Of a stretch of 64,000 nt of DNA, positions 17,359-48,804 are shown in pieces. The stretch is taken from assembly GCA_000990355.1 (NCBI GenBank), contig LBSX01000001.1, positions 3,392 through 67,391 of the forward strand. Direction: 5' to 3'. Source of the DNA: Candidatus Magasanikbacteria bacterium GW2011_GWC2_37_14. GTDB taxonomy: Bacteria > Patescibacteriota > Patescibacteriia > Magasanikbacterales > UBA922. The notes beneath the pieces were generated by a model. That model saw only the letters and a program-made list of their open reading frames with translations. It had not been told where the DNA came from and made no database searches. Within the stretch, counting starts at the first letter, position 1. Each line of letters begins with the position of its first letter. A program made the translations under genes and the position numbers.

Positions 17359-17366
17359 ATTATTTT

Positions 17367-20432: not shown

Positions 20433-20437
20433 AATAA

Positions 20438-22013: not shown

Positions 22014-22024
22014 AAATAAATTTG

Positions 22025-23461: not shown

Positions 23462-23548
23462 CCTGAATTTATTTCAGGATCTTTTTTAAGTATTTTTTAT
23501 TTAATAAATCTAGATAACGAAAAGATGCTGAAACGAGTTCAGCATGAC
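23457..23548. repeat. Bipartite palindromic element (GTCATCCTGAA..TTCAGGATC / GATGCTGAAACGAGTTCAGCATGAC)
   Basis: Same two-hairpin architecture as 14171-14283. Confidence 0.7.
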
Positions 23549-25047
23549 AGCTTTCTGACAATCCCCGCCTCTAGATCCACCTCCACCCGATCACCATCCT
23601 TAAAAACTTGTAATAAATGTTTAACACCAATTAAACAAGGTTTATTGAGTTCACGAGAAACAATAGCTGCGTGACAAGTAAGCCCACCAGTTTGCGTAAC
23701 AATTGCCGCCGAACGACGCATGGCTGGCACATGGTCCGGTGTAGTATTACTAGAAAGTAGTATATCACCAGCCTCTACTTTGTTTATATCTTGATTAGAC
23801 ATGACGATTTTAACAATTCCTTGCACTTGTTTCACTCCTCCACCACAAGCAACTGTACCAGCAAATTCAGTTAGTTCCAAATCTACTTCTTCTACTTCTA
23901 CATTATCCTTCATCCATTGTTTGGCTTCTTCTCCTACCAAAATTTTATCACTGTCTTTTTCGGAAATAAGTAAAGCATAATTTAAACGCTGATTTAAAAT
24001 ATCGGCCTTGGGCAAAGGCAATTCATTTTTTAAATAAGCTTGTAATTCCGAAACTGCACACATTCCAAATTGACGAATAGAATAACTTTCTTTTTTGGCA
24101 AAAACAGCCAATAACTTATTTATAGTAAAACAAGCTAGTGCCATAAGATTCGCTCGATAAGCTTTGGTATAACCAAAATCCTGAGCAATAGTGACAAAAT
24201 ATTTTTCATCTTCGCTAAAACCCAATTGCTCCATTATTTTTGTTTGTTTTTGTAATAATTCTTGAAAATTATTTTTAATAATTTTTAACTGTTCACTAGG
24301 TTTAAGATTTTGTGACAAAATATGACTTATTTCTTCTTTAGCATTATTAATGTTATATTCTGGCCCTTTGTAGCCATAAAACACCCAACCATATTTTTCT
24401 ATTGCTTGTAAAATTATTTTTTTGCCATCGTCTGATAAATTATCTAACTTTTCTCCTTGTTCAAATAGCCAATCAGCTATTAAATATAATTCAACTTTTA
24501 AATCTTCGGTCCAAGTTGTGTTTCTCGGAGTAGTAAGAATAGACAAACATTCATTTGCCGACATTTCTACAACAGACAAATTTTTGTTTCTAATTATTTC
24601 GGCAATTTTATTACTCATTCCCCCACCACCTAATTCCACAAACGGCCCTACCATGCCACTGGTACAAATAGTACTAAATAATTCTAAAATTTTTAAAATA
24701 CTCTCTTTAATTTTTTCCTCGGTCATTTGTCCACTTTTAAATTCACCAAGTGTTTCATTACAAAGCAAATACAAACTTTGGCCATTTTTTAACAAATGAT
24801 CTTTTACTTGCTCGGCAAACTGGTGATCATTATTAATTTTTTGCCATAAATAATCACCAAAATCAAACCAACTTTCTTTTTCGGCAATGGCATTCATTAC
24901 TTCACCTTCTACTTGATAAACGAAAGTTTTTAAAATACGACCAGTTAACCTTTCTAAATCCTTATGAAAAAAACCACGAATAATTGGGTGTAAACCTAAA
25001 ATATTACAATTTGGTTCGGTGTTTACTATACAATATTGTTTGATCAT
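23539..25047 (-). CDS. PEP-utilising-enzyme His-domain protein, array paralog 7
   Basis: 502 aa; ...GTVACGGGVKQVQGIVKIV...GGLTCHAAIVSRELNKPCLIGV. Confidence 0.75.
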   Translation of the reverse strand: MIKQYCIVNTEPNCNILGLHPIIRGFFHKDLERLTGRILKTFVYQVEGEVMNAIAEKESWFDFGDYLWQKINNDHQFAEQVKDHLLKNGQSLYLLCNETLGEFKSGQMTEEKIKESILKILELFSTICTSGMVGPFVELGGGGMSNKIAEIIRNKNLSVVEMSANECLSILTTPRNTTWTEDLKVELYLIADWLFEQGEKLDNLSDDGKKIILQAIEKYGWVFYGYKGPEYNINNAKEEISHILSQNLKPSEQLKIIKNNFQELLQKQTKIMEQLGFSEDEKYFVTIAQDFGYTKAYRANLMALACFTINKLLAVFAKKESYSIRQFGMCAVSELQAYLKNELPLPKADILNQRLNYALLISEKDSDKILVGEEAKQWMKDNVEVEEVDLELTEFAGTVACGGGVKQVQGIVKIVMSNQDINKVEAGDILLSSNTTPDHVPAMRRSAAIVTQTGGLTCHAAIVSRELNKPCLIGVKHLLQVFKDGDRVEVDLEAGIVRKLSC

Positions 25048-25055
25048 AAACGTTT

Positions 25056-25147
25056 GTCATCCTGAACTTGTTTCAGGATCTTTAATAAAATAATATTTAT
25101 CTAGAAAATAATCTAACGAAAAGATGCTGAAATAAATTCAGCATGAC
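25056..25147. repeat. Bipartite palindromic element (GTCATCCTGAACTTGTTTCAGGATC / GATGCTGAAATAAATTCAGCATGAC)
   Basis: Same family as 14171-14283. Confidence 0.7.
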
Positions 25148-26586
25148 AGCTTAATCACTGTCCCACTCGTCGCATCCACTTCCACTGTATCTCCATCTTT
25201 TAAAACATAAGTAGCACTCTTGGTGCCAATTATGCAAGGAATGTGCAATTCCCGCGCCACAATGGCCGCATGACAAGTAAGACCACCTTGGTTGGTAACA
25301 AAGGCACTGGCTTTTTTCATAATTGGTAAAAGAGATGGATCAGTAACAATCGATACTAAAATGTCACCTTCACTAAATTTATTCATTTCTTCGGCTCGAT
25401 TTACAATTGATACTTTTCCAATTACCTTGCCTGGATAACCACACTCCCCTTTTAATTCATTAACTTGTTCAAGTTTTGGTAAAACTTTTTTTGCTGGCTC
25501 CACACACTTAACAGCCGCTTCGCCAGTTAACAAATAAATTTTTTCACCATCAAAATATCTTACTGAGTAATTTCCTAGTTCATTGATAAAATCATGTTCA
25601 AAACATCCTTTTTCCAACATTTCAATTAATAATGGCATTGTTATATTGTATATTTGTGCCAAAGAAAAATAATTATCTTTGGCTATTCTTTTTAAAATTG
25701 GTTGTATAGCTTCGTAACTAGAAAAAAGTGCATCCATGCGATAGGTTTTCATGAATAATAATTCTTCCATTTGTCTAAACAAAATAATTTCTGGTTCAGA
25801 AAAATTTAATTTATTAATCCAAAATTCTTTATCAACTAATAATTGCTGATCTTTTTCTAAAACTTCGGCTAATTTTTCCGCTCTACCTTCTTTTAACAAA
25901 CCTTTAGCCACCTCGGTAAAATATTCCAAACTTAAATTTGGACCAGTCCAACCAAAAGTAATCCAGCTAAACTTTTGCCAATGTTTGGTAATTTCTGTTT
26001 GATTATTATTTTCACTTACAATTTTTAGCATTTCTCGCTCTTCTTTTTGGGCTGCCGATAATTCCCGTGGTGTAGACAAAACTTGAAAGACTTTAATTAA
26101 TTCTTCACCTATTAAACCTTTTTCTTTTAAGATGTTTTTTAAATAATCCGATAATAAAGAATTTTCTAATTCCAAAACATTAGTAATTTGTCCCAAGGTC
26201 CAAACTGTAAAATGTTTTTCTTGGTATTTTTTAAACCAACCAACAATTTCTTCTTCACTTAGTGTCCCTACTTCTAACTTTTTTAATTCACTAGACAATA
26301 GATTTAATTCATCTGCAGCTTTTCTTAAATCTGCAGAAACACTAGCCAATTTATTTGGTTCTTGTATAACTTCGGCTAACCAACGTTTACCAATTTCTGT
26401 CCATTCAGAACGAGAAAACATTATTCTTTGAACATTTTTTTCCTGTTCCACAATCATTTGGCTTATCCCATAACCCAGTCTTTCTTTAATAGTAAAAGCC
26501 AAACCATCTACATATGCAGAATGAAACCAAAAAATATCATACCACTCACCAAACAAAAACCAATCTTTTACAGTTATTTTTTTCAT
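25138..26586 (-). CDS. PEP-utilising-enzyme His-domain protein, array paralog 8
   Basis: 482 aa; ...GECGYPGKVIGKVSIV...GGLTCHAAIVARELHIPCIIGT. Confidence 0.75.
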   Translation of the reverse strand: MKKITVKDWFLFGEWYDIFWFHSAYVDGLAFTIKERLGYGISQMIVEQEKNVQRIMFSRSEWTEIGKRWLAEVIQEPNKLASVSADLRKAADELNLLSSELKKLEVGTLSEEEIVGWFKKYQEKHFTVWTLGQITNVLELENSLLSDYLKNILKEKGLIGEELIKVFQVLSTPRELSAAQKEEREMLKIVSENNNQTEITKHWQKFSWITFGWTGPNLSLEYFTEVAKGLLKEGRAEKLAEVLEKDQQLLVDKEFWINKLNFSEPEIILFRQMEELLFMKTYRMDALFSSYEAIQPILKRIAKDNYFSLAQIYNITMPLLIEMLEKGCFEHDFINELGNYSVRYFDGEKIYLLTGEAAVKCVEPAKKVLPKLEQVNELKGECGYPGKVIGKVSIVNRAEEMNKFSEGDILVSIVTDPSLLPIMKKASAFVTNQGGLTCHAAIVARELHIPCIIGTKSATYVLKDGDTVEVDATSGTVIKLSC

Positions 26587-28028
26587 AATTTCTTAATTAT
26601 ACCATTAGTTGCGTCTACCTCAATTTGATCACCGTCTTTTAAAATCTTATCTGCTTGGGGTACGCCGACCACACAAGGAATTTTTAACTCACGGGCAACA
26701 ATGGCCGTGTGACAAGTAAGGCCGCCTGACTCAGAAACCATAGCAGCCGCCTTTTTCATTGCCGGCACCAAATTAGGGTTGGTATTGTGCGCCACTAAAA
26801 TATCACCTTCATTCATTTTAGACACCTGTTCTGGCAAGTTGATTATCTTAACTGTACCACGAACTTTTCCCGGACAAGCACAAGTGCCAAAAAGTTCGTT
26901 GCTTTCTTTTACTTTAATTTTTTCAAATTTAATTTTGCTCATGAATTCTTTATAAGCTTGACCTGTATACATTACATATTTTTTACCATCACAATACGCT
27001 GCACACTCTTTTAAGCGTTGGTTTAATTCATTTTCATCATATTGATGTTTTAATAATGCTGGGGCAATTTCCCAATGATTCATTGCCCTCACTTGATCGA
27101 GCGACAAACCTAACCTCTTGCCGATTTCTTTAAAAATAAAACTATAACAATACATACCATGATACAACGCCATTTTACGATATTCTTTAATATGTACCAT
27201 TTGCTGTGCAAGCTTAATAAGATCTAGTTGATACTGGTTAAATTTTAATAATTTTAAAAGGTTATTTTGCTCCTGCAACATCTGACGACGATCGGTGATA
27301 ATTTTTTTAAGTAATACTTCTCGTTTTTCACCCAACTCCTCTAACGATTGCCAACGCTCCAAATAGTCTTTTTTAGTATATGCTGGACCTTTAAATTGAT
27401 AAGGTAACCAACAATATTTTTTACAATGTTTATCAAGTTCTTCGATATTTTTTAAACGTAAAAAAGCCATTTCTTCTTTGGTTACAATACTCTGCTGCCG
27501 CGGCGTGGAAAGTGTGCTAAACACAATTGCTGGTATCAAATTTAACTTTTTTTGCTTAATTTGTTCACTAATCATTTTTAAAATTCCTTTACTTACCCGC
27601 TCTTTTTCACAATCTGCATGCCAAGAAACAGATGGACCAATACCATGAGAATAATAATGAAATTTATATGACAAAAGAAAAACTTTAATTAAATCTTTGG
27701 CTGATAATTTTTTTAAATTATATTTTAATTGTCTGTCTGAAGCTTTAAAAAATTCAGTAGACCATTTTTCTACTTTAAGAATAATTTTTAATGCCCAATC
27801 AGGGTTGGCCAACATTTTTTTAGCCAAAAAATCTGCTTCAGCATCAAATTCTTTCCGCAGATAGCACATTCTAGAAAAATCACCCTGGTACCAAGTAAAA
27901 TAATGTTTAACTTTGCCGCCCAAACCAAATTTGGGCCACAGCTTAAAGGAGCCTGTCATTGTTACACCCATTACAAATGGGGTATTCTGGGTAATTTCAG
28001 CAATTACACACCAAGAATTTTTTTTCAT
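26583..28028 (-). CDS. PEP-utilising-enzyme His-domain protein, array paralog 9
   Basis: 481 aa; ...GTCACPGKVRGTVKII...GGLTCHTAIVARELKIPCVVGV. Confidence 0.75.
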   Translation of the reverse strand: MKKNSWCVIAEITQNTPFVMGVTMTGSFKLWPKFGLGGKVKHYFTWYQGDFSRMCYLRKEFDAEADFLAKKMLANPDWALKIILKVEKWSTEFFKASDRQLKYNLKKLSAKDLIKVFLLSYKFHYYSHGIGPSVSWHADCEKERVSKGILKMISEQIKQKKLNLIPAIVFSTLSTPRQQSIVTKEEMAFLRLKNIEELDKHCKKYCWLPYQFKGPAYTKKDYLERWQSLEELGEKREVLLKKIITDRRQMLQEQNNLLKLLKFNQYQLDLIKLAQQMVHIKEYRKMALYHGMYCYSFIFKEIGKRLGLSLDQVRAMNHWEIAPALLKHQYDENELNQRLKECAAYCDGKKYVMYTGQAYKEFMSKIKFEKIKVKESNELFGTCACPGKVRGTVKIINLPEQVSKMNEGDILVAHNTNPNLVPAMKKAAAMVSESGGLTCHTAIVARELKIPCVVGVPQADKILKDGDQIEVDATNGIIKKL

Positions 28029-29107
28029 ATTTTTTTTATTATACCATTAATGGCATCCACTTCTACCATATCGCCATCTTTTAAAACTTTAGTGGAAATT
28101 TTGGTTCCAGTGATACAAGGGATATTTAATTCACGCGCCACAATTGCTGCATGACAAGTAATACCACCTTCGTCAGTAATAATTGCCTTAGCTTTTTTCA
28201 TAATCGGGATAAAAAAAGGATTTGTCATAACCGTCACAAGGACATTTCCTTCCTTAAAATTAATAATTTCATCATTTTTTAAAATAATATTGACAATTCC
28301 TTTTATTGAGGTTGATCCGGTACAAGAAACCACCCCTCTAATTTCTTGATTGATAAATTGATTAACAGGTGCGGAAAAATAAAAATCTTGTTTTTCAAAA
28401 AAAACTTCTTTTGAAATATTAGTATATACTTTATCACCTAAAAAAATATAACCTGTAGAACGATTCTCTAATTCCTCTTTATTGGGTACATAATTATTAT
28501 CATCAAGCATTTTTTGAATTTCTGTAAAAGTTACAAAAGAAGCATATTTATTTTCCAGTTTTCTTTGCGATAATAAAATTCTAGCCACTGCTCGCCAATA
28601 CTGTACCAATTCTTGAATGGCACCTTCTGATTTTACTCTAGCATTTATCAGGCGTTCTAAAATATCATTTGCTTCTTTAGGATATTTTTCTTTAAGCTGT
28701 GGGGCCCACTGTGCCTGTGGCAATAAATAACTTACTGTATACCAAGGGTACATTTCTCTAGAGAGTTGTTTTATTTTTTCAAATACTGCTCTGTTTGCAA
28801 AATCTTTATTTTTATTAATCTTCCCCATTAATTCACGTATTTGTTTGACCAGTAGAATATAATGATTAATTTTATTTTCACTGAAAAAACCATTTTTAGG
28901 ATCGGTATTTACTACCGCTTTAAAAAAGGCTTTGGCTTCATCAACTACTCTATAAGTTTCCAACAATCGTCCATTAAAATAATATAACTGACTAGGAATG
29001 CCTATTCCAAAAACCTCCATGAGCCTTGGATTCATTTGTCCTGACCACCACTCTGCCCAAGCCAATGTATAATCGCGAGTCCAAGCTAAAAAAATTTCTT
29101 TTTTCAT
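28025..29107 (-). CDS. PEP-utilising-enzyme His-domain protein, array paralog 10 (short N-domain, 360 aa)
   Basis: ...GSTSIKGIVNIIL...GGITCHAAIVARELNIPCITGT. The N-terminal region is ~120 aa shorter than its siblings. Confidence 0.7.
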   Translation of the reverse strand: MKKEIFLAWTRDYTLAWAEWWSGQMNPRLMEVFGIGIPSQLYYFNGRLLETYRVVDEAKAFFKAVVNTDPKNGFFSENKINHYILLVKQIRELMGKINKNKDFANRAVFEKIKQLSREMYPWYTVSYLLPQAQWAPQLKEKYPKEANDILERLINARVKSEGAIQELVQYWRAVARILLSQRKLENKYASFVTFTEIQKMLDDNNYVPNKEELENRSTGYIFLGDKVYTNISKEVFFEKQDFYFSAPVNQFINQEIRGVVSCTGSTSIKGIVNIILKNDEIINFKEGNVLVTVMTNPFFIPIMKKAKAIITDEGGITCHAAIVARELNIPCITGTKISTKVLKDGDMVEVDAINGIIKKI

Positions 29108-30561
29108 AATTTTCTAATTATACCATTAATTATATCTACTTCCACTATGTCACCGTCTTTAAATACTTTGGTGCCAATTTTTGTACCTACCAAACAAGGA
29201 ATGCCAAGCTCACGAGAAACAATGGCTGCATGAGACAATAATCCCCCTTCGTCCGTAACAATGGCTCCTGCGCGCTCCATAGCGGGCACTAACGTGGGAT
29301 TGGTAGCTGGTGCAATCAAAATATCGCCTTTGTTTACTTTTTTAGCGTCGGCATCGCAAAGCACCAACTTTACTATTCCTGTGATCACTCCAGGCGAAGC
29401 ACCTTGACCACTTAACTCGATAATATTTTCATACTTTTCTATTTTCAATTCTTGTTTTTTATATTCTTCAAGTTTTTTACCAGAAAGCACAATAACTTTA
29501 TTACCTTCTAAAATAATTGCACTTTCAATTACTCGTTCATTTAATTTTTCTAAAGATAAAATTAATTCTCCACGATTTAAACTGTCTAAAATTTCTACAC
29601 CCCGCATTTCAATCAATTGTTTGTATGACATTCCTAAACGTCTGGCAATTTCATTAAACAATGGTTTTAAATTTACAACTGTAAAAGTAAAAACCTCGTC
29701 TACCAAACTATAAGCTGAAGCTTGAGCGCGAGCCGATTCAATATACTTAAGAATATTTTCTGGTAAATCTAATTCATTAATAAGCAATTCTCGCTTACTT
29801 AAATCATTTTCTAATTGTTTTATTTTTTGTAGTTCATTTTCAACACCATTATTCAATACTTCTTTAATTCTTTCTAAAATAATATCTTTATTATACAATT
29901 CACCGCGAAAATAATACTGCCCTAAATAAGCAAATTTACATAAATGTGTACTCACTAAATTTTCTAATTCTTGATTATAACCATTATCTTCTACAAACTT
30001 CGCTAAATTTAATAAAAAAAATTTTTCTTGCCTTGTTTCTGAAGAATCTTCTAATTGTAGTAAGATATTAAAATCTTCGTTTTGTTTATTAATATTTGGT
30101 TCTTTTTTAGCAATCTCGGCAAAAATTAAATCCGGTAAAAATTTATTAGTAATAATGGCGTTGTAAGCAAAAGCCCACATTTTACGAGTACAAGCTAAAT
30201 ATTCGGAAAAATTTATAAACAACACTTCTGTTTCTTGTTCAGACCAATTAAGATCTTTTATTTGTAAAACAAAATCTTTTAATTGCTTAATGCGTCTTTT
30301 ATATTCATTGGCGTATTCTAGCAAAGCACCAGGATTAGCAAGTTCTTTTTTACGAAAAAAATCACAAAAATCTGCTAAATTCTCTGAACCAAACCAACGA
30401 GCCCCAGCTAATTGCCGAAAGTTTTGAGGCTTAAATTCGGGCTTATTAAAGTCTAAACCTAAAAATGCCATAAATCCCTCCATAGCAGTGTCAATCAAAA
30501 GCAAGGCATGATTTTCGCCTCTACGAGTAATTTCCTCCCAAATTAGCTTACTTTCGGCCAT
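29104..30561 (-). CDS. PEP-utilising-enzyme His-domain protein, array paralog 11 (variant GGLLSHAAIVSREL)
   Basis: 485 aa; ...GQGASPGVITGIVKLV...GGLLSHAAIVSRELGIPCLVGT. Confidence 0.7.
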   Translation of the reverse strand: MAESKLIWEEITRRGENHALLLIDTAMEGFMAFLGLDFNKPEFKPQNFRQLAGARWFGSENLADFCDFFRKKELANPGALLEYANEYKRRIKQLKDFVLQIKDLNWSEQETEVLFINFSEYLACTRKMWAFAYNAIITNKFLPDLIFAEIAKKEPNINKQNEDFNILLQLEDSSETRQEKFFLLNLAKFVEDNGYNQELENLVSTHLCKFAYLGQYYFRGELYNKDIILERIKEVLNNGVENELQKIKQLENDLSKRELLINELDLPENILKYIESARAQASAYSLVDEVFTFTVVNLKPLFNEIARRLGMSYKQLIEMRGVEILDSLNRGELILSLEKLNERVIESAIILEGNKVIVLSGKKLEEYKKQELKIEKYENIIELSGQGASPGVITGIVKLVLCDADAKKVNKGDILIAPATNPTLVPAMERAGAIVTDEGGLLSHAAIVSRELGIPCLVGTKIGTKVFKDGDIVEVDIINGIIRKL

Positions 30562-30637: not shown

Positions 30638-32356
30638 TTATTTCTCCAAATCACTCCACATACTCTCATCATCTTCTTTTGGTTTGTCGCTAGCAAAAAA
30701 TGGTTGATTCGTATTCGGCACAGAAACTGCTCCACCAGAAGCTTTCTTTTTATGACGCTTACGTTTTTTCTTTTTAAAAGGTTCACTAGTTAAATTAGTC
30801 TGAGTATTTGTTACAACAACATTATTTATGATTGGCTTATTAAAAACTGGAGATTCTGCTATTTTTATTGGTTCTTCCTTGGGTAATAACTTTGATAAAG
30901 ACAATGTTTCTTCTGGTTCACTAACAGGCACTGCTAATTTTTTAATTAATTCACTAGGAGAAATTTTTGATTCATCTACCACTACCACTGGCTCTTTATG
31001 CTCCAATTCTAATTCTTCACCATCTTCATTTTCCTCTACTTCCATACCACTCCAACGTAAAATCTTTTCTTCAATAACTTCGCGCGGTTTACCATAACGT
31101 TCACGAGAAACTCTAACTATTTTTTCGGCACTATCAGTTGGCTGGCCGATTGGTGGCATGGTAATGGCAGAAAAGGGTTGCGAAGCCACACCATCAATCA
31201 TTAATTTCATAATGATGTGAAATTTAGGCAAATTTAAAATTTCTTCTGGCAAATAGGTTGGCATGTATTCTTTTTCAAAATATTCTGCATCTGGTCCACC
31301 AATTCTAAAAGTAATCATGGTACCGACGTTACCAAAAACAGCATCCGACACCAGTTCGTCTAATTGGGCTACATATTGATGTGCCATAATTAAACTTAAA
31401 CGATATTTACGAGCTTCGGACAAAATATTGGCAAAACTTGGTGTAGCAAAATTTTGAAATTCGTCTACATACAAAAAGAAATCCTGACGTTCTGCTTCTG
31501 GAGTGTCTACTCGTTCCATAGCCGAAAGCTGGATTTTGGTAATAAGCATTCCACCCAAAAGACGTGAATTATCTTCGCCAATTCTACCTTTTGAAAGATT
31601 GATAATAAAAATTTTCTTTTCATCCATTATTTTACGAACATCTATGGTAGATTTGACCTGAGCTACCATATTGCGAATAACACTGGCCGATAAAAACTGG
31701 CCGATTTTATTTTGTACAGCGGCCACAGCTTCGGTAGCATATTTTTCACTATAACTGGCAAATTCCTGTTCCCAAAAAGATTTAATTACTGGGTCTTTAA
31801 CTGATTTAACTACTCTTGCTCGATACTTTTTATCGGACAACATGCGATTGATACCCAGCAATGTAGAACCCGGATGTTCTAAAAGCGCCAAAATAGTATT
31901 GTTTAAAATGTACTCCATGCGAGGACTCCAAACATCGGGCCAAATCTTTTTAAAAGCTGCCATAAGACCAGCAGCTACCAAGTGCTTTTGTTCTTCAAAT
32001 TGGACTTCTAGAATATTGAAACCAATTGGATAGTTAGTATCAGCAGGATTAAAATAAATTACATCATTAATCCGATTGGCAGGAATATAATTAATAATTT
32101 TTTCGGCAAAATCTCCGTGAGGATCCACTACGCCCACACCATGACCAGCATAAATATCATGAAGCACCATATTTTCCATCATCGTAGTTTTGCCCATGCC
32201 TGTTTTACCAATTACATACATGTGACGCCGGCGGTCATCTAGTTTAATACCAAAACGACGCAATTGGTTGCGATAGGCAGTTTGAGCAAAAAAACAAATA
32301 TCTTCTTTTTCCTTTGGGACAACTACACCCTTGGTTGTAAGATGTTGAAGAGGCAC
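30638..32356 (-). CDS. VirD4/TraG/TrwB-like (FtsK-HerA superfamily) P-loop ATPase with K-rich disordered C-terminal tail
   Basis: Walker A at VIGKTGMGKTTMM, Walker-B-like FFLYVDEFQNF. C-terminal ~120 aa are acidic then lysine-rich (KKKKRKRHKKK). The track start is a GTG. It sits 76 bp upstream, in transcription order, of the 11-gene array. Confidence 0.5.
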   Translation of the reverse strand: MPLQHLTTKGVVVPKEKEDICFFAQTAYRNQLRRFGIKLDDRRRHMYVIGKTGMGKTTMMENMVLHDIYAGHGVGVVDPHGDFAEKIINYIPANRINDVIYFNPADTNYPIGFNILEVQFEEQKHLVAAGLMAAFKKIWPDVWSPRMEYILNNTILALLEHPGSTLLGINRMLSDKKYRARVVKSVKDPVIKSFWEQEFASYSEKYATEAVAAVQNKIGQFLSASVIRNMVAQVKSTIDVRKIMDEKKIFIINLSKGRIGEDNSRLLGGMLITKIQLSAMERVDTPEAERQDFFLYVDEFQNFATPSFANILSEARKYRLSLIMAHQYVAQLDELVSDAVFGNVGTMITFRIGGPDAEYFEKEYMPTYLPEEILNLPKFHIIMKLMIDGVASQPFSAITMPPIGQPTDSAEKIVRVSRERYGKPREVIEEKILRWSGMEVEENEDGEELELEHKEPVVVVDESKISPSELIKKLAVPVSEPEETLSLSKLLPKEEPIKIAESPVFNKPIINNVVVTNTQTNLTSEPFKKKKRKRHKKKASGGAVSVPNTNQPFFASDKPKEDDESMWSDLEK

Positions 32357-38496: not shown

Positions 38497-39939
38497 TTAA
38501 GCAAAAGGTAAATTGTCGTCGTAATTTATATGTCCAGCATCGGTGGTATAACCAATTTTTGGAGATTTTCCTTCTTCGATTTTTTTTGTTCTATTTTCTC
38601 CACTAGCCCAAACTGGATTTAAAAGCGATTCGACTGGTAAGCCTGTTGGAGGTTCTGATTGTTTGGCAGCCGCTTTTTGCAATAACGGAGTTTTTACATG
38701 CGACATTGGAAAATGCCAAAGTGTGGCTAATTCCATTATATTTAAAACATAAGGATTGGAACCAGCTTTGATTTTTCTTTTTTTGTAAGCTTTCATTAAT
38801 AAATTTTTACGATAATTAATAATACTTTTGGCAAAAAATGAGGTAGCGGCTGTTTTGTAAACTGCAGCCAAAGAATTAGCGTTGGGAATGTTGAATTGGG
38901 AAACCGCACCCATAAGAGCATGAACCCCACGTTCTTTTCTAAATACTTCTTTACGAGCTACATAGAGCCCACGCATTTTGGTTTTAAAACCAGTTTTTTG
39001 AATTTTATTTTCCATGCCCTCAATTAATTTGCCCTGCCCTGGGGATAATTCCTTTTTCTCTTCTTTTTCGTGTTCTTCTGCTTCTCCACCTTCGCGACCA
39101 AAAACTTGATCGCCAATAAATTCCAATGTTTTTAAAGTTGCGTCTGGTAATTTATCCAAAGCGCCAGACAAACCTCCGCCATGAGCATGCCCAACACCAG
39201 CAATTTCTTCAATTTTTTCTATAACTTCTTCTTTCCAATGATTGGAAATGGGCTCGACAATTATTTGAAACCACATTTGTTCACCAGAATTTAAACGAGC
39301 AAAACTTTCCAAAAAAGTACCCATGGGATCTTTTAAAACAGTATCCTTGGAAATTTTATGTTCAAATTCCTCGTAAGTACGTATAGGATATGCCCAATTT
39401 TCTGTGGGTCCAAAATCCGCAGCCCACATTTCGTATTCTTCGTTGGGAAATACATCCGGCAAATTTTTTACATAATCCTCTACTTCAACAATTTCGGCAT
39501 CAGGGTATTGGGCGTAAACTGCAGTTTCTACCAAATCACGGAATGTTTTTTCGGTACGTACCAAAAATTGAATATAACCTTCAATACTAATAACCTCAAA
39601 ACTAAACCACTGTTGTTTAAAACCATGCCAATACTTTTCGGTAATATCCACATGATTAAAAGCTCCGGAAATTTGACTGAACATTTGCTCTACTGCCATT
39701 GGCGTTTGGATATTTAAGGCTGGGATATCTATGGCCAAGACTTGCCATTCCCAATTATGGGTAAATTTTTCTTGACGATAATTTACCCATAGAAGTATTC
39801 CCGCATTGATAACGAAATAACCAAGAATAACCCAGCCACCAATTATAAATAAATCAAAAATTACTTTTGCTGGTGCTTGAGCAAAAAAGATAGACAAAAA
39901 ATTAAAATCCCAATTAACTGAATAAAAACCAAGATCCAT
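38497..39939 (-). CDS. hypothetical membrane-anchored protein
   Basis: 480 aa with N-terminal TM segments; no recognisable motif. Confidence 0.4.
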   Translation of the reverse strand: MDLGFYSVNWDFNFLSIFFAQAPAKVIFDLFIIGGWVILGYFVINAGILLWVNYRQEKFTHNWEWQVLAIDIPALNIQTPMAVEQMFSQISGAFNHVDITEKYWHGFKQQWFSFEVISIEGYIQFLVRTEKTFRDLVETAVYAQYPDAEIVEVEDYVKNLPDVFPNEEYEMWAADFGPTENWAYPIRTYEEFEHKISKDTVLKDPMGTFLESFARLNSGEQMWFQIIVEPISNHWKEEVIEKIEEIAGVGHAHGGGLSGALDKLPDATLKTLEFIGDQVFGREGGEAEEHEKEEKKELSPGQGKLIEGMENKIQKTGFKTKMRGLYVARKEVFRKERGVHALMGAVSQFNIPNANSLAAVYKTAATSFFAKSIINYRKNLLMKAYKKRKIKAGSNPYVLNIMELATLWHFPMSHVKTPLLQKAAAKQSEPPTGLPVESLLNPVWASGENRTKKIEEGKSPKIGYTTDAGHINYDDNLPFA

Positions 39940-40235: not shown

Positions 40236-40295
40236 AATGAGTAGTATACCACAAAAAATAAGCCCTGGAAACCAGGGCTTATTAATTTTTATTTT

Positions 40296-41219
40296 TTAGC
40301 GACTGCGACGATCAAATCTAAACCATTCTACCAAGAGTGGCGAAGCCACAAAAATTGAAGAATAAGCACCTAAGAAAATACCTACAAGCAAAGCTAGAGT
40401 AAAGTTTTTAATAGTTTCACCACCAATAAAATATAATACTGCCAATGTAAGTAAAGTGGTTAAAGTAGTATTAATTGAACGAGCAAAAGTTTGATTTATA
40501 GCTACATTTACAGTATCAGGAAAATTTTCCGCACTATGACGAATTAAATTTTCACGAATACGGTCAAAAACTACAATCGTATCATTTACTGAATAACCCA
40601 AAATTGTTAACAAGGCCACTACAAATGGTATGTCCACTTCTATACCGGCAAAATGACCCAAAAAAGCAAAAACACCAGCGGTAATTGTAACGTCATGAAA
40701 TAAAGCTACAACAGCTACTAATCCATACTTCCATGAAGCTACTGGACGAGAAACTTTTCTAAATGAATAAGCAATATACAAAATAATACCCACAACTACT
40801 ACAAACAATGCATAAAGTGAACGAGACTTTAATTCTTTACTTACTGCAGGACCAATAGTTTCAAAACGTACTTCTAAGACTTTGTTATTATCTTTTTCAA
40901 AATCAGTGCGTATTTTATTTAATACTTTGGTATGATCAGCATCACTTAAAAATGGCATTTTTACAATTAACCCTTTTTCATTGGTTTCTTGTACAGAAAT
41001 ACTACCCAAAGACAAACTTTCAATACTAGCTTTAACTTCGGTAACTACTGGTACATTTTCTGTAAAACGTGTTTCTAACAATGAGCCACCTTTGAAATCA
41101 TTACCAGTTTTTAAGCCAAAAACCAAAAGAGCAACCACACTTACCACAAACAAGGCTCCGGACAAAGCCAAATTAATATAACGATGTTTAATAATATTTA
41201 CCATATAATTATTGATCAA
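40296..41219 (-). CDS. secF: protein translocase subunit SecF
   Basis: 307 aa; 6-TM SecF topology and motifs. Overlaps secD by 11 nt. Confidence 0.85.
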   Translation of the reverse strand: MINNYMVNIIKHRYINLALSGALFVVSVVALLVFGLKTGNDFKGGSLLETRFTENVPVVTEVKASIESLSLGSISVQETNEKGLIVKMPFLSDADHTKVLNKIRTDFEKDNNKVLEVRFETIGPAVSKELKSRSLYALFVVVVGIILYIAYSFRKVSRPVASWKYGLVAVVALFHDVTITAGVFAFLGHFAGIEVDIPFVVALLTILGYSVNDTIVVFDRIRENLIRHSAENFPDTVNVAINQTFARSINTTLTTLLTLAVLYFIGGETIKNFTLALLVGIFLGAYSSIFVASPLLVEWFRFDRRSR

Positions 41220-43254
41220 TTTTCTTAGAGCCTAAAAATAAACGATTACCAAATTCACCAAACCAAGGAATAATAAAACGCACCAAAGTTCGAGAAACAG
41301 TAATAGCTGTAAACATGCTTGTTAACACGCCAATAGTCAAGGTAACCGCGAAACCTTGGACAAAACTAGATCCAAACCAAATTAAAATTACACAGGTAAT
41401 AAGTGTAGAAATGTTACTATCACGTATAGAAGGCCAGGCGCGTAAAAATCCTTCTTCGGCTGCTGCTTTTAGACTCTTACCGCTACGCAATTCTTCTTTC
41501 ATGCGTTCAAAAATTAAAACATTTGCATCTACCGCCATACCAATAGACATAATAAAACCAGCAATACCAGACAATGTAAGTGTGGCCCCAATTAATTTGG
41601 TTACTGCCAAAACAAGCATGGCATATAATGATAAAGCAAAAACTGACAAAAGCCCTGGCAAACGATAATAAATAATCATGAAAATTGCTACCAAAATTAT
41701 ACCAACTAAACCAGCTTTTAAACTTTTGTCTAAGGATTCACTGCCTAAACTAGCACCAATAGTTTGTTGGGAAATTAATTCTACTGGTACAGGCAAAGCC
41801 CCAGCATTAAGTCGTTGGGATAACAATTTAGCTTCTTGTAAATCAAAAGCACCAGTAATCACTGCTTGACCATCGCGAATTGGAGTGTTTACAGTAGGCA
41901 CAGAAATTGCCACACCATCCAAAAATATTGCTACTGGTTTACCAACATTACGTTCGGTAACATCTTTAAACAATTCTTTGCCTTCGTCATTAAATTGTAA
42001 GGACACTTGAACCTCTCCAGTATTTTGATCAGTAACAACTTCGGAACGTTTTAATTGTTTACCCGAAAGACCGGTGCTTTTCCATTGATCTTGTGGAGGA
42101 ATAATATCGACCTCGGTCTTAGTTTTAATTAACACACGATAAAGTTCATATTCCTTACTTTGACGTTCATTAACTTTGTAAATTACATGATAACCAAATT
42201 CTGTTTCTACTGGTCCAATAATTTCACCTACTTTGGCTTTAAAAACAGCTTCACCAAATGCCGGAACCATTACCTCTTTGGTAAAATAACCCAAATCACC
42301 ACCAATAACTTTGGAACCAGGATCACTAGAATTTTGTTTAGCTAAATCAGCAAAATTTTGAGCATTAGCTTGGTTATACAATTCTTGTGCTTTTTTAAAA
42401 GCCTCTTCTTTACTATATATTGGATTTTCACAATTTTTGGCTCCTAAATAACAAATTAAAATATGGCTAGCTTGTACTTCGGTTACCCCATTTTGTTCTT
42501 TACCTCTTTTTAAAACATTATAGCCAACCAAAGATTCAATTGGCTCTTTGCTAATGGTATTTTCTAAATTTTTACTAGCCCATTCATATAAAGCACTATC
42601 AGGATTATTTTTTGCTACAAAACCCAAATAGCCACCATTATTTTTACTAGTTGTATCTTCGGAATAATCAGTAACCACTTTTGCAAAATCTGTGCCAGCT
42701 TTAATCTTGTTCAAAGCTTCGGTAGCTTTAACTTTAGCATTTTTGTTATAAGTTTCTAACTCCTTTTTTTCTTCGGCAGTTAAAGTACGAGCTGGTTCAT
42801 TATTTTGTTCTTTAAACTCCAAAATTGGTGTACCACCAATCATTTGAATAGCTTTTTTAACATCATTAATACCTGGTAATTCCACCATTACTCGATAATT
42901 TTCACCCACTTTGGTAGTTTGCACAACTGGTTCTGATACTCCCAAGCCATTTACCCGACGTTCAATTACATCACGTACACCTTCTACAGCTGTAGATCTT
43001 TCGGCCTGAGCAATATTTGCCACATCGGCTTGGTACAACAAATGAGCACCACCTTGTAAATCCAAGCCTAAATTAAAACCTTTTTCCGGAACTTTTGGCA
43101 AACCCAGGGCAGTTTTGGTATTTACCCAATTTACACCTTTATTAAAATAGGCGGGAAAGTCAAAAACACCACTTATAAAAAAGAGAGCAATAATTCCCAC
43201 TATACCCCAACGAATTTTAGCTCGTAGGTTTGTTTTGTTTTGTTTAATAACCAT
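41209..43254 (-). CDS. secD: protein translocase subunit SecD with an embedded parvulin (PpiC-type) PPIase domain
   Basis: 681 aa. SecD N-terminal TM plus periplasmic domain and a C-terminal 6-TM bundle. Inside the periplasmic region (aa ~253-358, nt ~42180-42500) is GVTEVQASHILICYLGAKN...GGDLGYFTKEVMVPAFGEAVF...GPVETEFGYHVIYKV, the PpiC/parvulin rotamase signature. Confidence 0.8.
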   Translation of the reverse strand: MVIKQNKTNLRAKIRWGIVGIIALFFISGVFDFPAYFNKGVNWVNTKTALGLPKVPEKGFNLGLDLQGGAHLLYQADVANIAQAERSTAVEGVRDVIERRVNGLGVSEPVVQTTKVGENYRVMVELPGINDVKKAIQMIGGTPILEFKEQNNEPARTLTAEEKKELETYNKNAKVKATEALNKIKAGTDFAKVVTDYSEDTTSKNNGGYLGFVAKNNPDSALYEWASKNLENTISKEPIESLVGYNVLKRGKEQNGVTEVQASHILICYLGAKNCENPIYSKEEAFKKAQELYNQANAQNFADLAKQNSSDPGSKVIGGDLGYFTKEVMVPAFGEAVFKAKVGEIIGPVETEFGYHVIYKVNERQSKEYELYRVLIKTKTEVDIIPPQDQWKSTGLSGKQLKRSEVVTDQNTGEVQVSLQFNDEGKELFKDVTERNVGKPVAIFLDGVAISVPTVNTPIRDGQAVITGAFDLQEAKLLSQRLNAGALPVPVELISQQTIGASLGSESLDKSLKAGLVGIILVAIFMIIYYRLPGLLSVFALSLYAMLVLAVTKLIGATLTLSGIAGFIMSIGMAVDANVLIFERMKEELRSGKSLKAAAEEGFLRAWPSIRDSNISTLITCVILIWFGSSFVQGFAVTLTIGVLTSMFTAITVSRTLVRFIIPWFGEFGNRLFLGSKKIDQ

Positions 43255-43364
43255 AAATAAAAATAGCTAATAAGTAATGGGCCTATTTTATATTAACTTG
43301 GCTTTTCCGTCAAGTGATTTAGTCACAAGAAAAAACCGGCATTTAGCCGGTCTTTTCATTTATT

Positions 43365-44385: not shown

Positions 44386-44560
44386 ACAAAAAACCGCCTT
44401 TTCTCCTTGCTCAAATTATTATTTTTAATAAGCTGAATAGGGTGGCGGTTTTTGTCACCCATTTTTGCTTGGGTGCGCCCGGAAGTGGGCGAAGGTGCGA
44501 GAGGTGGGCGCTGCTAAACAGCGAAAGGCGACGACGAATCCAGGAAGGTGCGGAAGGTAG
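44386..44560. repeat. GC-rich ~170-bp repeat, copy A (inverted relative to copy B at 49095-49268)
   Basis: The reverse complement of 49150-49266 matches 44386-44500 almost exactly (ggtggcggtttttgtcacccatttttgcttgggtgcgcccggaagtgggcg, plus the hairpin aaaaaccgcc...ggcggttttt). Similarity then decays over the next ~70 bp. Confidence 0.75.
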
Positions 44561-44878
44561 CACAATGAACTTCTCGTTCACGTCTGGTGATCCGAGAACG
44601 CTTCAGAAAATCGGCCAGCTCCACAGCAACCTGTGTAAGTGGCACTTCCGCCGCAAAGGCCCGAACGTTGACACGAAGGGGGAAAGCATCGATCAGGACA
44701 CCAGGGGCACTCTTGCCATCTGGTTCGGCGTGCTTGAAGTTCACTCGGTACTTCATCACTCACTCCATGTCCTAGTTGTTGAGCACAAGTCCCACAACAT
44801 AATGCCAGAAAAAAACAAAAAAGTCAAGGATAAAAAAATGACCCTACCATATAATAGGGCCATTTTAAATTATTAAAA

Positions 44879-45900: not shown

Positions 45901-48804
45901 TTAAGCGCCATGACACTTTTTGTATTTTTTTCCACTCCCACAAGGACAAGGATCATTTCTGCCAATTTTTTCTCCGGTTTCTTCGTTCCGAGGTTTACTC
46001 TCTGTTTGTCCACTAGCCAATTCTACCGAATCACTACCTTTTAAAACCATTTTTTCCGAAGCCATAATTGACGGTGCCAACTGAATACCCAAACCAATTT
46101 TGAAAAATGAATATACTACTTCTTTTTGAATTCCACTAAGCAATTCATTAAACATTTGATAGGTTTCTTTTTTGTATTCTACCAGTGGATCACGTTGGCC
46201 ATAACCACGGAGTCCTATACCAGTACGCAAATAATCAATCGCTACCAAGTGATCTACCCAAAAACTATCTATGGAACGAAGCAAAATATTTTTTTCTAAT
46301 TCATGCATCGCACGCTCTCCTTCTTCTGACGTTCCAAAATTAGACATTACCTTTTCTTTAAAAACCTCATATTCTTTTTCGGCCTTATTCATTAAAAACT
46401 TTACAATTTCATCACGCACCACCACGTCTTCTAATTTGGAATTGCCATTTTTGGTTAAGTGTAACAAGGTCTCACGTTCTTCGTTGGTAAAAGAAAAAAT
46501 AGTATGCATGGTTTCGTAAATTTCTTTGAGATCCCATTCATTTTTGTCGGGTAAATTGGTATGAAAAGAAACGACAAAATTTATTTCTTCGGCAATTAAA
46601 TCCATGATTGTTTCTTGTAAACTAAGATATTTCTTATCAAAGTCATGAGAATTTTCGTCTTTAATAACTTCTTCTTGATTTACTTTAAAATTTGCAGCTA
46701 AATTTAAAATCTGACGTCGTTTTTTGTAAATTACATCGCGATGTTTGTTTAAGACATCATCATATTCCAACAAATGTTTACGAGAATCAAAATGAAAACC
46801 TTCAACTTTCTTTTGTGCGCCTTCCAACATGCGAGTAATCATGCGTTGTTCAATTGGCATGTCTTCGGGCACTTTTAATGTGGTCATGACACTCTTAATT
46901 CGGTCGCCAGCAAAAATTCGCATTAAGTCATCTTCGGTAGACACAAAAAATTGGGTTTCACCAGGATCACCTTGACGAGCACTACGACCACGAAGTTGAT
47001 TATCAATACGACGTGCTTCGTGGCGTTCGGTACCAAGCACAAACAAACCACCAGCTTGGCAAACAATCTCTGCCTCTTCTTTATTTATTGGGTTGCCACC
47101 AAGCTTAATGTCTACACCACGACCAGCCATATTAGTGGCCAAGGTAATTGCGCCTGGTCTACCTGCTTGGGCAATAATTTCCGCTTCACGTTCGTGATTT
47201 TTGGCATTTAAAATTTCATGTTTAATGCCTTCTACTGTTAAGTAAGCACTTAATTCTTCATTTTTTTCTACCGAAATAGTACCAATCAACATTGGCTGAT
47301 TTTTGGCTCGACATTCTTTGATTTTTTCAATGATTGCTTTGTTTTTGGCGCGTTCATGACGATAAATACGATCGGGATGATCAACTCGTTGATCACCCTT
47401 GTTGGTAGGAATAGTAATAACATCCAAATTATATATTTTACCAAATTCTTCTTTTTCGGTTTCGGCCGTACCAGTCATACCCGATAACTTGCGGTACATG
47501 CGAAATAAATTTTGGAAAGTAATTGTGGCCAAAGTTTGACTTTCGCGTTGGATTTTAACATTTTCTTTGGCTTCAATAGCTTGATGAAGTCCTTCGGAAT
47601 AACGACGGCCTGGCATTTTGCGTCCCGTAAATTCGTCGATAATAATAATTTCACCGTTATCGACAATATAATCACGATCACGTTTGAATAATACTTCGGC
47701 TTTTAAAGCTTGTTCGATATGATGGACTAATTTTATACCACCTTCTTCGTAAATATTGGCCACATTTAACCATTTTTCAAATTTGGCAATGCCTTGTTCG
47801 GTAAGAGTGGCCGAACGCATTTTTTCGTCCAAATTATAATCTCCCAAATCGTCGGGATTAACTGGAGTATTGTCGTTTTTACTAAGCATGCCAAAACCAG
47901 TGGTATCTTTTACAGTTTTATCTTCTTTTAATTGACGAACTAATTTGGCAAATTGATAATACTGATCTGTGGCTTCTTCGGCTGGGGCAGAAATAATTAG
48001 CGGAGTACGAGCTTCATCAATTAGAATAGAATCTACTTCGTCGACAATTGCATAATGCATTTCATCACCAGGGCGCATTACCATTTCTTCCAAACTCTGT
48101 ACCATGTTGTCGCGCAAATAATCAAAACCAAATTCATTGTTGGTACCATAAGTAATATCACAACGATAAGTTTCTTGGCGTGAACAAGGAACAAGAAATT
48201 CATCTTCAATTTTAAAACTTTCTATTTCACTTTCTTTTTCTAATTCTTCAACTTTGCGGATTTCCTCCCCTTGGAAAGGGGAGGTTGGGAGGGGTTGATT
48301 TTTATTAGCATTATATTTATACGACACGCGCATGTTTTGAATAATACCCACACTCATGCCCAAAAAATCATAAATTTTACTCATCCATACAGCATCGCGT
48401 TTGGCCAAATAATCATTGACAGTTACTACATGCACACCTTTGCCTTCCAAAGCATTTAAATAAACCGGCAAAGTGGCTACCAAAGTTTTACCTTCACCAG
48501 TACGCATTTCGGCAATACTACCTTTGTGCAACATGGTGCCACCAATAAGTTGTACATCGTAGTGACGCATACCTAAAACACGGTGTGCAGTTTCGCGCAC
48601 CGTAGCAAAAGCTTCTGGTAAAATATCATCCAATGTTTCGCCTTTAACCAGACGTTCTTTAAATTCAATAGTTTTGTGTTTTAGTTCATCATCAGTTAAT
48701 TTTTGCCAAGCAGGTTCTAAACTATTAACTTTTTCAACAATCGGCTGAACTGCACGAACAAATTTTTTACTAGGATCGCCAAATATTTTTTCAAGAAATT
48801 GCAT
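45901..48804 (-). CDS. secA: preprotein translocase ATPase SecA (with an in-frame hairpin insert near the N-terminus)
   Basis: 967 aa; DEAD-like motor motifs. C-terminal zinc finger CPCGSGKKYKKCHG. The insert at 48258-48300 (cccctcccaacctcccctttccaaggggagg) encodes ..SPFQGEEIRK.. Confidence 0.9.
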   Translation of the reverse strand: MQFLEKIFGDPSKKFVRAVQPIVEKVNSLEPAWQKLTDDELKHKTIEFKERLVKGETLDDILPEAFATVRETAHRVLGMRHYDVQLIGGTMLHKGSIAEMRTGEGKTLVATLPVYLNALEGKGVHVVTVNDYLAKRDAVWMSKIYDFLGMSVGIIQNMRVSYKYNANKNQPLPTSPFQGEEIRKVEELEKESEIESFKIEDEFLVPCSRQETYRCDITYGTNNEFGFDYLRDNMVQSLEEMVMRPGDEMHYAIVDEVDSILIDEARTPLIISAPAEEATDQYYQFAKLVRQLKEDKTVKDTTGFGMLSKNDNTPVNPDDLGDYNLDEKMRSATLTEQGIAKFEKWLNVANIYEEGGIKLVHHIEQALKAEVLFKRDRDYIVDNGEIIIIDEFTGRKMPGRRYSEGLHQAIEAKENVKIQRESQTLATITFQNLFRMYRKLSGMTGTAETEKEEFGKIYNLDVITIPTNKGDQRVDHPDRIYRHERAKNKAIIEKIKECRAKNQPMLIGTISVEKNEELSAYLTVEGIKHEILNAKNHEREAEIIAQAGRPGAITLATNMAGRGVDIKLGGNPINKEEAEIVCQAGGLFVLGTERHEARRIDNQLRGRSARQGDPGETQFFVSTEDDLMRIFAGDRIKSVMTTLKVPEDMPIEQRMITRMLEGAQKKVEGFHFDSRKHLLEYDDVLNKHRDVIYKKRRQILNLAANFKVNQEEVIKDENSHDFDKKYLSLQETIMDLIAEEINFVVSFHTNLPDKNEWDLKEIYETMHTIFSFTNEERETLLHLTKNGNSKLEDVVVRDEIVKFLMNKAEKEYEVFKEKVMSNFGTSEEGERAMHELEKNILLRSIDSFWVDHLVAIDYLRTGIGLRGYGQRDPLVEYKKETYQMFNELLSGIQKEVVYSFFKIGLGIQLAPSIMASEKMVLKGSDSVELASGQTESKPRNEETGEKIGRNDPCPCGSGKKYKKCHGA

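Follow-up and report, generated by a model that had tools for sequence, protein, structure and literature searches.

It is still being studied how folding factors receive the proteins that leave SecYEG, and recent work favours physical coupling, with PpiD/YfgM at SecY, SurA on SecDF and a dome in Mycoplasma. The locus described here raises the question of whether a foldase can be part of SecDF itself. It lies in a stretch of 64,000 nucleotides from contig LBSX01000001.1 of Candidatus Magasanikbacteria bacterium GW2011_GWC2_37_14 (hereafter the window, to which all coordinates refer), and a preliminary description made from the DNA letters had proposed that the SecD encoded there carries a parvulin-type peptidyl-prolyl isomerase (PPIase) domain in its periplasmic head. 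SecD and parvulins are both well known on their own. We find that this 681-residue SecD holds an insert with two parvulin domains, a degenerate one (D1) and an active-looking one (D2), and that the same fusion recurs in many uncultured Patescibacteria. We favour the view that the insert is a foldase or chaperone tethered to the translocon.

An insert of two parvulin domains in the P1 domain of SecD

By all sequence criteria applied, the protein is SecD. It scores 402 bits against the NCBIfam SecD model TIGR01129 (cutoff 244), with the match split in two by the insert. Pfam searches of the whole open reading frame (ORF) place Sec_GG (PF07549) at residues 58-77 and SecD_1st (PF21760) at residues 91-151, both N-terminal of the insert, and SecDF_P1_head (PF22599, profile positions 18-114 only) at residues 393-489 and SecD_SecF_C (PF02355) at residues 491-660, C-terminal of it. 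The adjoining ORF is identified as SecF by TIGR00966, with 289 bits against a cutoff of 160. In the AlphaFold2 (AF2) model of SecD, membrane helices occupy residues 10-32 and 505-664, and the chain from the first transmembrane helix (TM1) to about residue 505 is assigned to the outside of the cytoplasm. The aspartate of the proton pathway is kept: D576 aligns with D340 of Thermus thermophilus SecDF and is invariant among relatives. SecF has the sequences GYSVNDTIVV and NQTFARS (the IND and NQTxxR motifs), which, judged by eye, correspond to D637 and R671 of the T. thermophilus protein. Judged by this alignment, the motor residues of SecDF are intact.

In phmmer searches of the PDB, residues 55-158 align with residues 27-126 of T. 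thermophilus SecDF, ending just past the LEFR strand, and residues 377-660 align with residues 142-424. About 218 residues thus stand in place of about 15 (T. thermophilus SecDF 126-142), directly after the LEFK/R strand. The insertion point identified by this alignment is the first connector from the P1 base to the mobile P1 head, and the order along the chain is TM1, P1 base, D1 core, D2, the β1' strand of D1, P1 head and TM2-6.

The preliminary description had asked for a Pfam scan and had counted failure to score as a rotamase against itself; the segment scores strongly. In the whole ORF, Rotamase_3 (PF13616) matches residues 248-359 in two stretches with E 1.5e-42 (145 bits against a cutoff of 22.5), and Rotamase (PF00639) matches with E 4.3e-36. 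The peptide that had been read at 42180-42500 as residues 253-358 is reproduced exactly by translation of positions 42181-42498 of the minus strand (EQNGVTEVQASHILICYLGAKNCENPIYSKEEAF...GPVETEFGYHVI). Matches to Pfam and NCBIfam models on both sides agree with the view that the insert is flanked by periplasmic segments of SecD and followed by a normal transmembrane core and SecF. Other parts of the description need revision. The parvulin sequence does lie in the P1 domain, but the alignment with T. thermophilus SecDF puts it at the connector between base and head, outside the body of the head. The single parvulin domain recognized there corresponds to D2, which has the canonical order; a second, degenerate parvulin at about residues 158-250, which scores alone with Rotamase E 5e-14, had been missed. 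The insert had been taken to be about 105 residues long and actually measures about 220.

D2 has the predicted fold and the active-site residues of a parvulin

By score, predicted fold and active site, D2 is a parvulin. Scanned alone (residues 257-379), it matches nearly the whole Rotamase_3 profile (positions 15-113; E 3.8e-29, 102 bits against 22.5). BLASTP alignment with human Pin1 equates H264, D311, T351 and H356 with the catalytic positions H59, C113, S154 and H157, and L321, M329 and F333 with L122, M130 and F134 of the proline pocket. The numbering of the Pin1 query reproduces the known catalytic residue numbers. The predicted model of D2, with pLDDT above 90, matched known parvulins in Foldseek, with TMt of 0.83 for SurA P2 (4g2p), 0.84-0.85 for PrsA (2jzv and 6xd8) and 0.78-0.80 for Pin1.

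These positions are conserved. The catalytic and pocket residues are kept in 40-44 of 44 close relatives (at least 40 for D311, T351, M329 and F333), and H264 and H356 are both histidine in 301 of 308 double-type inserts. Mean identity of the 44 relatives to the window protein is 66% in D2, 51% in D1 and 73-74% in the base, head and membrane domain of SecD, so that D2 appears to be under a constraint near that of the motor itself. D2 also has a CX6C motif in its β1-α1 loop (C268 and C275; 42430-42453, minus strand) that is invariant in all 44 close relatives and lost in many distant double-insert homologues; the two cysteines may form an extracytoplasmic disulfide.

D1 is a degenerate parvulin with a predicted circular permutation

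Scanned alone (residues 146-256), D1 scores 53 bits against a Rotamase cutoff of 21.7, and the match covers profile positions 9-95 only; β1 is missing. D1 keeps Asp200 and Ser241, and both of its histidine positions are altered among the 44 relatives, the second being Asn246 in 42 and the first, on a displaced strand, Arg373 in 38. Across the double-type inserts, positions 246 and 373 are both non-histidine in 284 of 308, in an alignment that is gappy at 373 in divergent sequences. With neither the catalytic tetrad nor the canonical strand order, D1 is a parvulin homologue without predicted enzyme activity.

The canonical order is β1-α1-3-β2-α4-β3-β4, whereas D1 appears to have its β1 after β4 and after D2. 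SecD proteins with a single module have the same displacement: their order is LEFKE, α1, SEDPGSKxxGGDLGxF, MVPEF, TxFGYHIIKK, a loop, EV+ASHILIKT and the head, with the β1 strand and its first catalytic histidine placed after β4. When the tail strand of two such single-insert proteins was moved to the front, their Rotamase matches grew from profile positions 8-97 and 10-96 to 1-97 and 1-96, with a gain of about 6 bits. The tail of the window insert (residues 367-380, KEYELYRVLIKTKT...DIIPPQDQW) aligns with this β1 strand, with Arg373 replacing the histidine.

AF2 modelling gave a mean pLDDT of 78 and pTM of 0.39 for the full-length protein, in which the insert reaches about 90, and pLDDT 93 and pTM 0.73 for the insert by itself. 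Both models contain two long strands: residues 244-267 comprise D1 β4, a linker and D2 β1, and residues 354-377 comprise D2 β4, a linker and β1'. We infer from the models that these strands pair as a two-stranded ribbon running through both domains, which would make the module one stiff unit. The conserved histidine pair lies on D2 β1 and β4, and the degenerate pair on D1 β4 and β1'. Since histidine is conserved together at 264 and 356 and lost together at 246 and 373, intact half-sites appear to pair with each other and decayed half-sites likewise, as expected for nesting. Prediction and this conservation logic together suggest that D1 is a circular permutant, that D2 is nested in its β4/β1' hairpin and that D1 in turn sits between the P1 base and head.

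Foldseek returned no PDB entry matching the two-domain unit (best TMq 0.39). A SurA-like tandem geometry was rejected in the same searches (root-mean-square deviation (rmsd) 13 Å, TMq 0.38). The NCBIfam SurA model spans both domains, aligning residues 171-367 with SurA 193-387 (E 3e-26).

The fusion recurs across Patescibacteria

The preliminary description had allowed that the ORF might be two genes joined by a sequencing error. An identical SecD is on record for Candidatus Magasanikbacteria GW2011_GWC2_37_14, which belongs to the Candidate Phyla Radiation (CPR; Patescibacteria), and is present on 6 contigs. The best 120 clusters at 90% identity all have the same set of Rotamase and SecD Pfam domains; they are 62-87% identical to the window protein, 658-716 residues long (nearly all 673-689) and derived from NCBI, JGI, ENA and Logan assemblies. 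The presence of SecD sequence on either side of the insert and the recurrence of the architecture in hundreds of independent assemblies dispose of the joined-gene explanation. We conclude that the fusion is genuine and that an extensive uncultured lineage has conserved it.

We searched the P1 region against 1.84 billion representatives at 50% identity and dissected the best 150 by domain. SecD-parvulin fusions make up 99 of these 150, and the architecture persists in relatives down to 33-39% identity. Inserts fall into size classes of about 120-170, 217-263 and 334-344 residues, plus one of 396; these classes represent inserts of one module, of two and probably of three.

A scan of GTDB species representatives with the single pattern LGLDL.GG.. 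gave at least 80 loci among the matches listed, a biased sample, which we typed with domain hidden Markov models. Two modules occur in 27 of the 80 (Magasanikbacteria, Uhrbacteria, Parcubacteria-group and Peribacteria) and one module in 13 (Buchanan-, Komeili- and Kerfeldbacteria and one Magasanikbacteria), all catalytic motifs being kept in 11 of these 13. The other 40 have none (Saccharibacteria, Microgenomates, Nealson-, Portnoy- and Niyogibacteria, Chloroflexi, Elusimicrobia, Proteobacteria, Cyanobacteria and others). In plain SecD proteins the spacing at the insertion site is 7-68 residues, and three of the module-free loci (L045, L074 and L076) have unrelated low-complexity inserts of 113-153 residues there. 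Among the matches listed, the fusion-bearing lineages are Patescibacteria only: Magasanik-, Uhr-, Buchanan-, Komeili-, Kerfeld- and Peregrinibacteria. A search from a distant 1075-residue representative found fused SecDF with the same insert in Peregrinibacteria and Gracilibacteria, with Rotamase in 118 of the 120 best matches.

In a rough neighbour-joining tree calculated from the SecD core without the insert, one clade of Patescibacteria contains every parvulin-bearing protein other than that of Peribacteria. Forms with zero, one and two modules are interspersed in that clade, which suggests repeated gain and loss.

Some SecD loci (L002, L004, L005, L009, L011, L013, L014, L025 and others, many of them TPA metagenome bins) are labelled "uncultured Gammaproteobacteria", "Candidatus Binatia" or "Lysobacteraceae". 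They nest among named Patescibacteria in the tree, and we therefore treat the labels as unreliable; probably the organism labels are wrong or the contigs mis-binned. We also noted stand-alone proteins of 363-414 residues (P0239, P0243, P0248, P0255, P0256 and P0270) that have three tandem canonical parvulin domains. Proteins of this type begin with a signal peptide or a lipobox-like N-terminus and share the extended β1-α1 region of D2, SHILI.Y.GA...TR.KEEA; by this resemblance they are free multi-parvulin relatives of the inserted module.

Public records name the fusion proteins only SecD, SecF or SecD/SecF fusion, and their foldase content is thus invisible to annotation-based surveys. No SecD-parvulin fusion or circularly permuted parvulin was found in full-text literature, a body in which subscription journals are mostly outside coverage.

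Relation to known foldases at the translocon

Compared with canonical SecD and SecDF (T. thermophilus 3AQP and 5YHF; Deinococcus radiodurans 5XAN), the window protein has the same GG motif, P1 base and head, RND-type domain with the proton-pathway Asp and adjacent secF, and it matches these structures with E 1e-75 in phmmer and 1.6e-20 in Foldseek. It differs in having two parvulin domains in place of the short connector. To our knowledge, no solved SecD structure carries a foldase domain.

PrsA is the membrane-anchored extracytoplasmic foldase of monoderm bacteria. The window SecD would resemble PrsA of Bacillus subtilis and B. anthracis (4WO7, 6VJ4 and 6XD8) in presenting a parvulin with a His/Asp/Ser-Thr/His site at the outer surface of the cytoplasmic membrane, and the Foldseek matches of D2 to PrsA (TMt 0.84-0.85) have an rmsd of 2.3-2.5 Å and 36-38% identity. 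Unlike PrsA, it has no lipobox and no N- or C-terminal SurA-like chaperone domain, its anchor is SecD, and it has two parvulins, of which one is predicted to be permuted. It scores 85-92 bits against the NCBIfam PrsA models (cutoffs 343-361) and 92 bits against the SurA model (cutoff 394), and Pfam detected no SurA-N or trigger-factor-like chaperone domain flanking the parvulins at E <= 0.01. The parvulins are internal to SecD (residues 158-380) and have no export signal of their own, neither a PrsA lipobox nor a SurA signal peptide nor a PpiD transmembrane helix. On these sequence features the protein is not a member of the PrsA, SurA or PpiD families; by analogy, its parvulin part probably works like one.

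Like SurA (Escherichia coli 1M5Y), the insert has tandem parvulins of which the first appears inactive and the second active. It differs from SurA in lacking the N- and C-terminal core and in its two-domain geometry (see above). SurA, moreover, serves outer-membrane proteins, which are probably absent from these bacteria. Patescibacteria are generally regarded as having a Gram-positive-like envelope that lacks an outer membrane, and on that presumption PrsA or PpiD is a better comparator than SurA. SurA has been found to bind the holo-translocon, with AlphaFold models setting its P1 and P2 parvulins against the P1 head of SecDF (PMC9987972). In the window SecD, this modelled contact would have been made covalent.

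In E. coli, PpiD/YfgM sits at SecYEG (PMC9643414). The window protein would share with PpiD the arrangement of a membrane-tethered parvulin protein at the translocon promoting translocation, and the parvulin of PpiD is inactive, as D1 is predicted to be. PpiD, however, is a protein of its own that crosses the membrane once and contacts SecY through a large chaperone domain, whereas the window protein has its parvulins within SecD, one of the two being active-looking. In Mycoplasma pneumoniae, PrsA-like PPIC lipoproteins (the Mdp436/444/489 dome) form an obligate complex with SecYEG-SecDF; catalytic residues are present in one PPIC domain only, and Mdp444 has an Arg where the first His would be (bioRxiv 10.1101/2025.04.25.650208). 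Both systems belong to genome-reduced bacteria without an outer membrane, both couple Sec physically to PPIC foldases, and the Arg of Mdp444 parallels the Arg373 substitution on β1'. The dome differs in its non-covalent coupling, its large chamber-forming lipoproteins, its unrelated lineage and its architecture.

A proposed foldase tethered to SecDF and the alternatives

What the insert does we can only infer. The best explanation, and in our judgement a likely one from the sequence, the models and these analogies, is that the predicted rigid double-parvulin module in P1 is a foldase or chaperone tethered to the translocon. The structures from T. thermophilus and D. radiodurans have established a model of SecDF in which the emerging chain is captured by the P1 head. 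Here SecDF would act as the usual proton-driven device, its P1 head capturing and pulling the chain from SecYEG, and the hinge-attached module would receive the unfolded chain at the SecYEG exit. D2 would catalyse prolyl cis/trans isomerisation, D1, like SurA P1 or the parvulin domain of PpiD, would lack catalysis and provide a scaffold or a holdase surface, and folding outside would hinder back-sliding of the chain. The fusion would then be the in-cis counterpart of PrsA, PpiD/YfgM, SurA-SecDF contacts and the Mycoplasma Mdp dome, all of which act in trans, and by this analogy a foldase at the translocon exit is plausible. An in-cis foldase would fit a small-genome organism that, like this one, is generally regarded as lacking an outer membrane. 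As for its origin, SecD may first have acquired a single active permuted parvulin; tandem duplication of that unit may then have given two copies, of which the outer one decayed. The preliminary description had also suggested that the fusion could make up for a missing SurA or PrsA. When D1 and D2 were used as phmmer queries on all the six-frame ORFs of the window, secD was the only match, and the 6-kb flanks of secD in 80 related loci contain no other parvulin, a result that says nothing on the rest of the genomes.

A stronger and more tentative version joins all of these elements, and we regard it as possible but rather doubtful in its entirety. SecD would then be a self-contained translocation-and-folding machine with the first natural circularly permuted parvulin in which an active parvulin is nested; the stiff arm on the proton-driven P1 hinge would hand the chain to the isomerase with each stroke and replace a free PrsA-type foldase. 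If this were true, the fusion would serve as Rosetta-stone evidence for a direct working partnership, in bacteria at large, between parvulin chaperones and the SecDF P1 head.

Several observations weigh against a tethered, nested foldase. Re-permuting the D1 of the window protein itself did not extend its Pfam match (53.8 to 53.9 bits), so that permutation in this protein is read from its homology to single-insert forms, and two sequentially permuted units would be an alternative topology compatible with the sequence alone. The insert adjoins the hinge and not the tip of the head, and with a full-length pTM of 0.39 the model does not fix the position of the module relative to the SecY exit. 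D2 motifs are weakened in some relatives, GGDLG, for example, being replaced in several distant sequences. One Magasanikbacteria metagenome-assembled genome (L029; JACOYB010000007.1, ORF 5782-7587), nested among two-module Magasanikbacteria, lacks D2 and keeps the dead permuted D1, with a Ser/Thr-rich loop where D2 would be, and a few members of the fusion-bearing clade carry no insert; both findings argue that catalysis is not indispensable. Parvulin domains with intact motifs can also be dispensable for chaperone function, as in SurA and PrsA.

These points bear most directly on the main alternative, in which the insert extends the P1 head as a non-catalytic binding or holdase element, a larger surface for polypeptide capture or a dock for partners, and isomerase chemistry is irrelevant, as it is in the inactive parvulin domains of PpiD and SurA P1. 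The loss of both histidines of D1 in 284 of 308 double-type inserts, the retention of dead D1 by itself in L029, the degenerate motifs of several single-insert and distant double-insert relatives and the survival of SurA and PrsA chaperone function after loss of PPIase activity would all fit such a role. We nevertheless think it unlikely, since the catalytic tetrad and proline pocket of D2 are near-invariant across two deep branches of the CPR, with both histidines in 301 of 308 inserts, a pattern that would hardly arise unless the active site were under selection; every catalytic motif is likewise kept in 11 of 13 single-insert species representatives. The conserved D2 residues would serve nothing if the module were instead a mechanical or regulatory device, a stiff hinge arm that tunes, gates or limits the swing of the P1 head between F-form and I-form or anchors SecDF to the cell wall or S-layer. 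Insertion exactly at the first base-to-head connector, the predicted rigidity of the module (pTM 0.73) and the retention of D1 where D2 is lost (L029) would suit that role, but the number of modules varies from 0 through 1 and 2 to about 3 among close relatives, which argues against a finely tuned mechanical element, and Pfam detected no wall-binding domain in the whole ORF. We consider it quite improbable.

Could the domain simply be tolerated in a permissive surface loop of SecD? The unrelated inserts of 113-153 residues at the same site in L045, L074 and L076 and the spacing of 7-68 residues in plain SecD proteins indicate that the loop accepts sequence. A neutral passenger, however, would not be expected to be nearly as conserved as the SecD core (66% against 73%), to keep its architecture down to 33-39% identity and in two CPR classes, or to have invariant active-site residues, and we give this explanation very little credence. 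Least credible of all is that a chimeric assembly or a frameshift has artificially fused secD to a prsA-like gene, a possibility raised solely by the source being a metagenome-assembled genome. It is refuted by the single uninterrupted frame with SecD sequence on both sides of the insert, by the identical protein on 6 contigs, by more than 100 related clusters of the same length from independent projects and by the same insertion site in 40 of 80 species-representative genomes.

Taken as a tethered foldase or chaperone, the module would matter beyond this locus. Covalent fusion in at least 99 clusters at 50% identity is independent evolutionary evidence for a parvulin foldase beside the SecDF P1 head and lends support of the Rosetta-stone type to the published couplings between separate proteins, and the single chain offers a compact object for structural and biochemical study of the hand-off in place of a transient complex. 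The predicted nesting of domain in domain in domain, with circular permutation, is a case for how inserts evolve, and the fusion bears on envelope biogenesis in uncultured, genome-reduced Patescibacteria.

The secD locus and other features of the window

The features of the locus are collected in Table 1. secD and secF probably form one operon. Directly 3' of secF lies a gene for a 480-residue protein (38497-39939, minus strand) with an N-terminal hydrophobic segment and no Pfam match. Most related Patescibacteria loci, whether or not they have the parvulin insert, encode a homologue at the corresponding place 3' of secF, and the protein may be a conserved partner of the secDF cluster.

Table 1. 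Coordinates of the secD locus and of the domains of its product
Feature	Position	Strand	Description	Basis
secD	41209..43254	-	681 residues plus stop codon; SecD with insert of two parvulins, ~220 residues	ORF list, Pfam, NCBIfam
secF	40296..41219	-	307 residues; 11-nt overlap with secD stop	TIGR00966, ORF coordinates
Promoter-like site TTGACG-17-TAAAAT	43285..43313	-	~30 nt 5' of secD start	consensus match only
Terminator-like hairpin, 12-bp stem and T-run	40257..40283	-	13 nt 3' of secF stop	consensus match only
TM1, N-terminal transmembrane helix	43147..43215	-	~residues 14-36; hydrophobic stretch WGIVGIIALFFISGVF	hydrophobic stretch; AF2 helix 10-32; aligned SecDF topology
P1 base, N-terminal part	42799..43092	-	residues 55-152; GG motif, final strand PILEFKE	PF07549, PF21760; aligns to T. 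thermophilus SecDF 27-126
D1 core	42505..42783	-	residues 158-250; parvulin α1 to β4 without N-terminal β1	Rotamase E 5e-14; AF2 pLDDT >90
D2	42169..42480	-	residues 259-362; predicted parvulin PPIase domain of canonical order	Rotamase_3, Pin1 alignment, conservation, Foldseek
β1' strand	42115..42156	-	residues 367-380, KEYELYRVLIKTKT; putative displaced β1 of D1	homology to single-insert SecDs; AF2 strand 354-377
P1 head subdomain and return to base	41785..42114	-	residues 381-490	PF22599; aligns to T. thermophilus SecDF from residue 142
TM2-TM6, RND-type membrane domain	41260..41784	-	residues 491-665; Asp576	PF02355; alignment to 3aqp

A second PPIase gene in the window encodes a cyclophilin-type protein (PF00160; 45355-45888, minus strand) without a signal peptide, directly 3' of secA (45901-48804). 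We considered and rejected it as part of a foldase-Sec cluster: besides lacking a signal peptide, it has no homologue in the related loci by phmmer, for which reason we treat its adjacency to secA as coincidental.

Two stretches depart from the base composition of the genome (about 33% GC). Rfam and ARAGORN searches of the window and of both GC-rich stretches found nothing. At 44440-44835, about 400 nucleotides of higher GC between a DUF5671 gene and a lipoprotein-like gene hold only implausible ORFs on both strands and have promoter-like and terminator-like sites at their ends; they gave no Rfam match above noise, and the folding z-score of -1.25 is not significant. An island of 1 kb at about 12000-13000, with 62-71% GC, contains an ORF of about 250-320 residues resembling high-GC coding sequence; the ORF has no Pfam match, and the island yielded no Rfam match and no tRNA. 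It adjoins a DUF559/Vsr-like endonuclease gene (13129-13497) and may have come from foreign DNA, a mobile element or a chimeric assembly.

Finally, positions 14274-30561 (minus strand) are occupied by a tandem array of paralogues, eleven consecutive ORFs of 478-522 residues and one of 360. The two members that were scanned have a C-terminal PEP-utilizers mobile domain (PF00391) as their only Pfam match, preceded by about 400 residues without one. Adjoining the array is a gene for a TrwB/TraG-like type IV secretion coupling-protein ATPase (30638-32356, minus strand).

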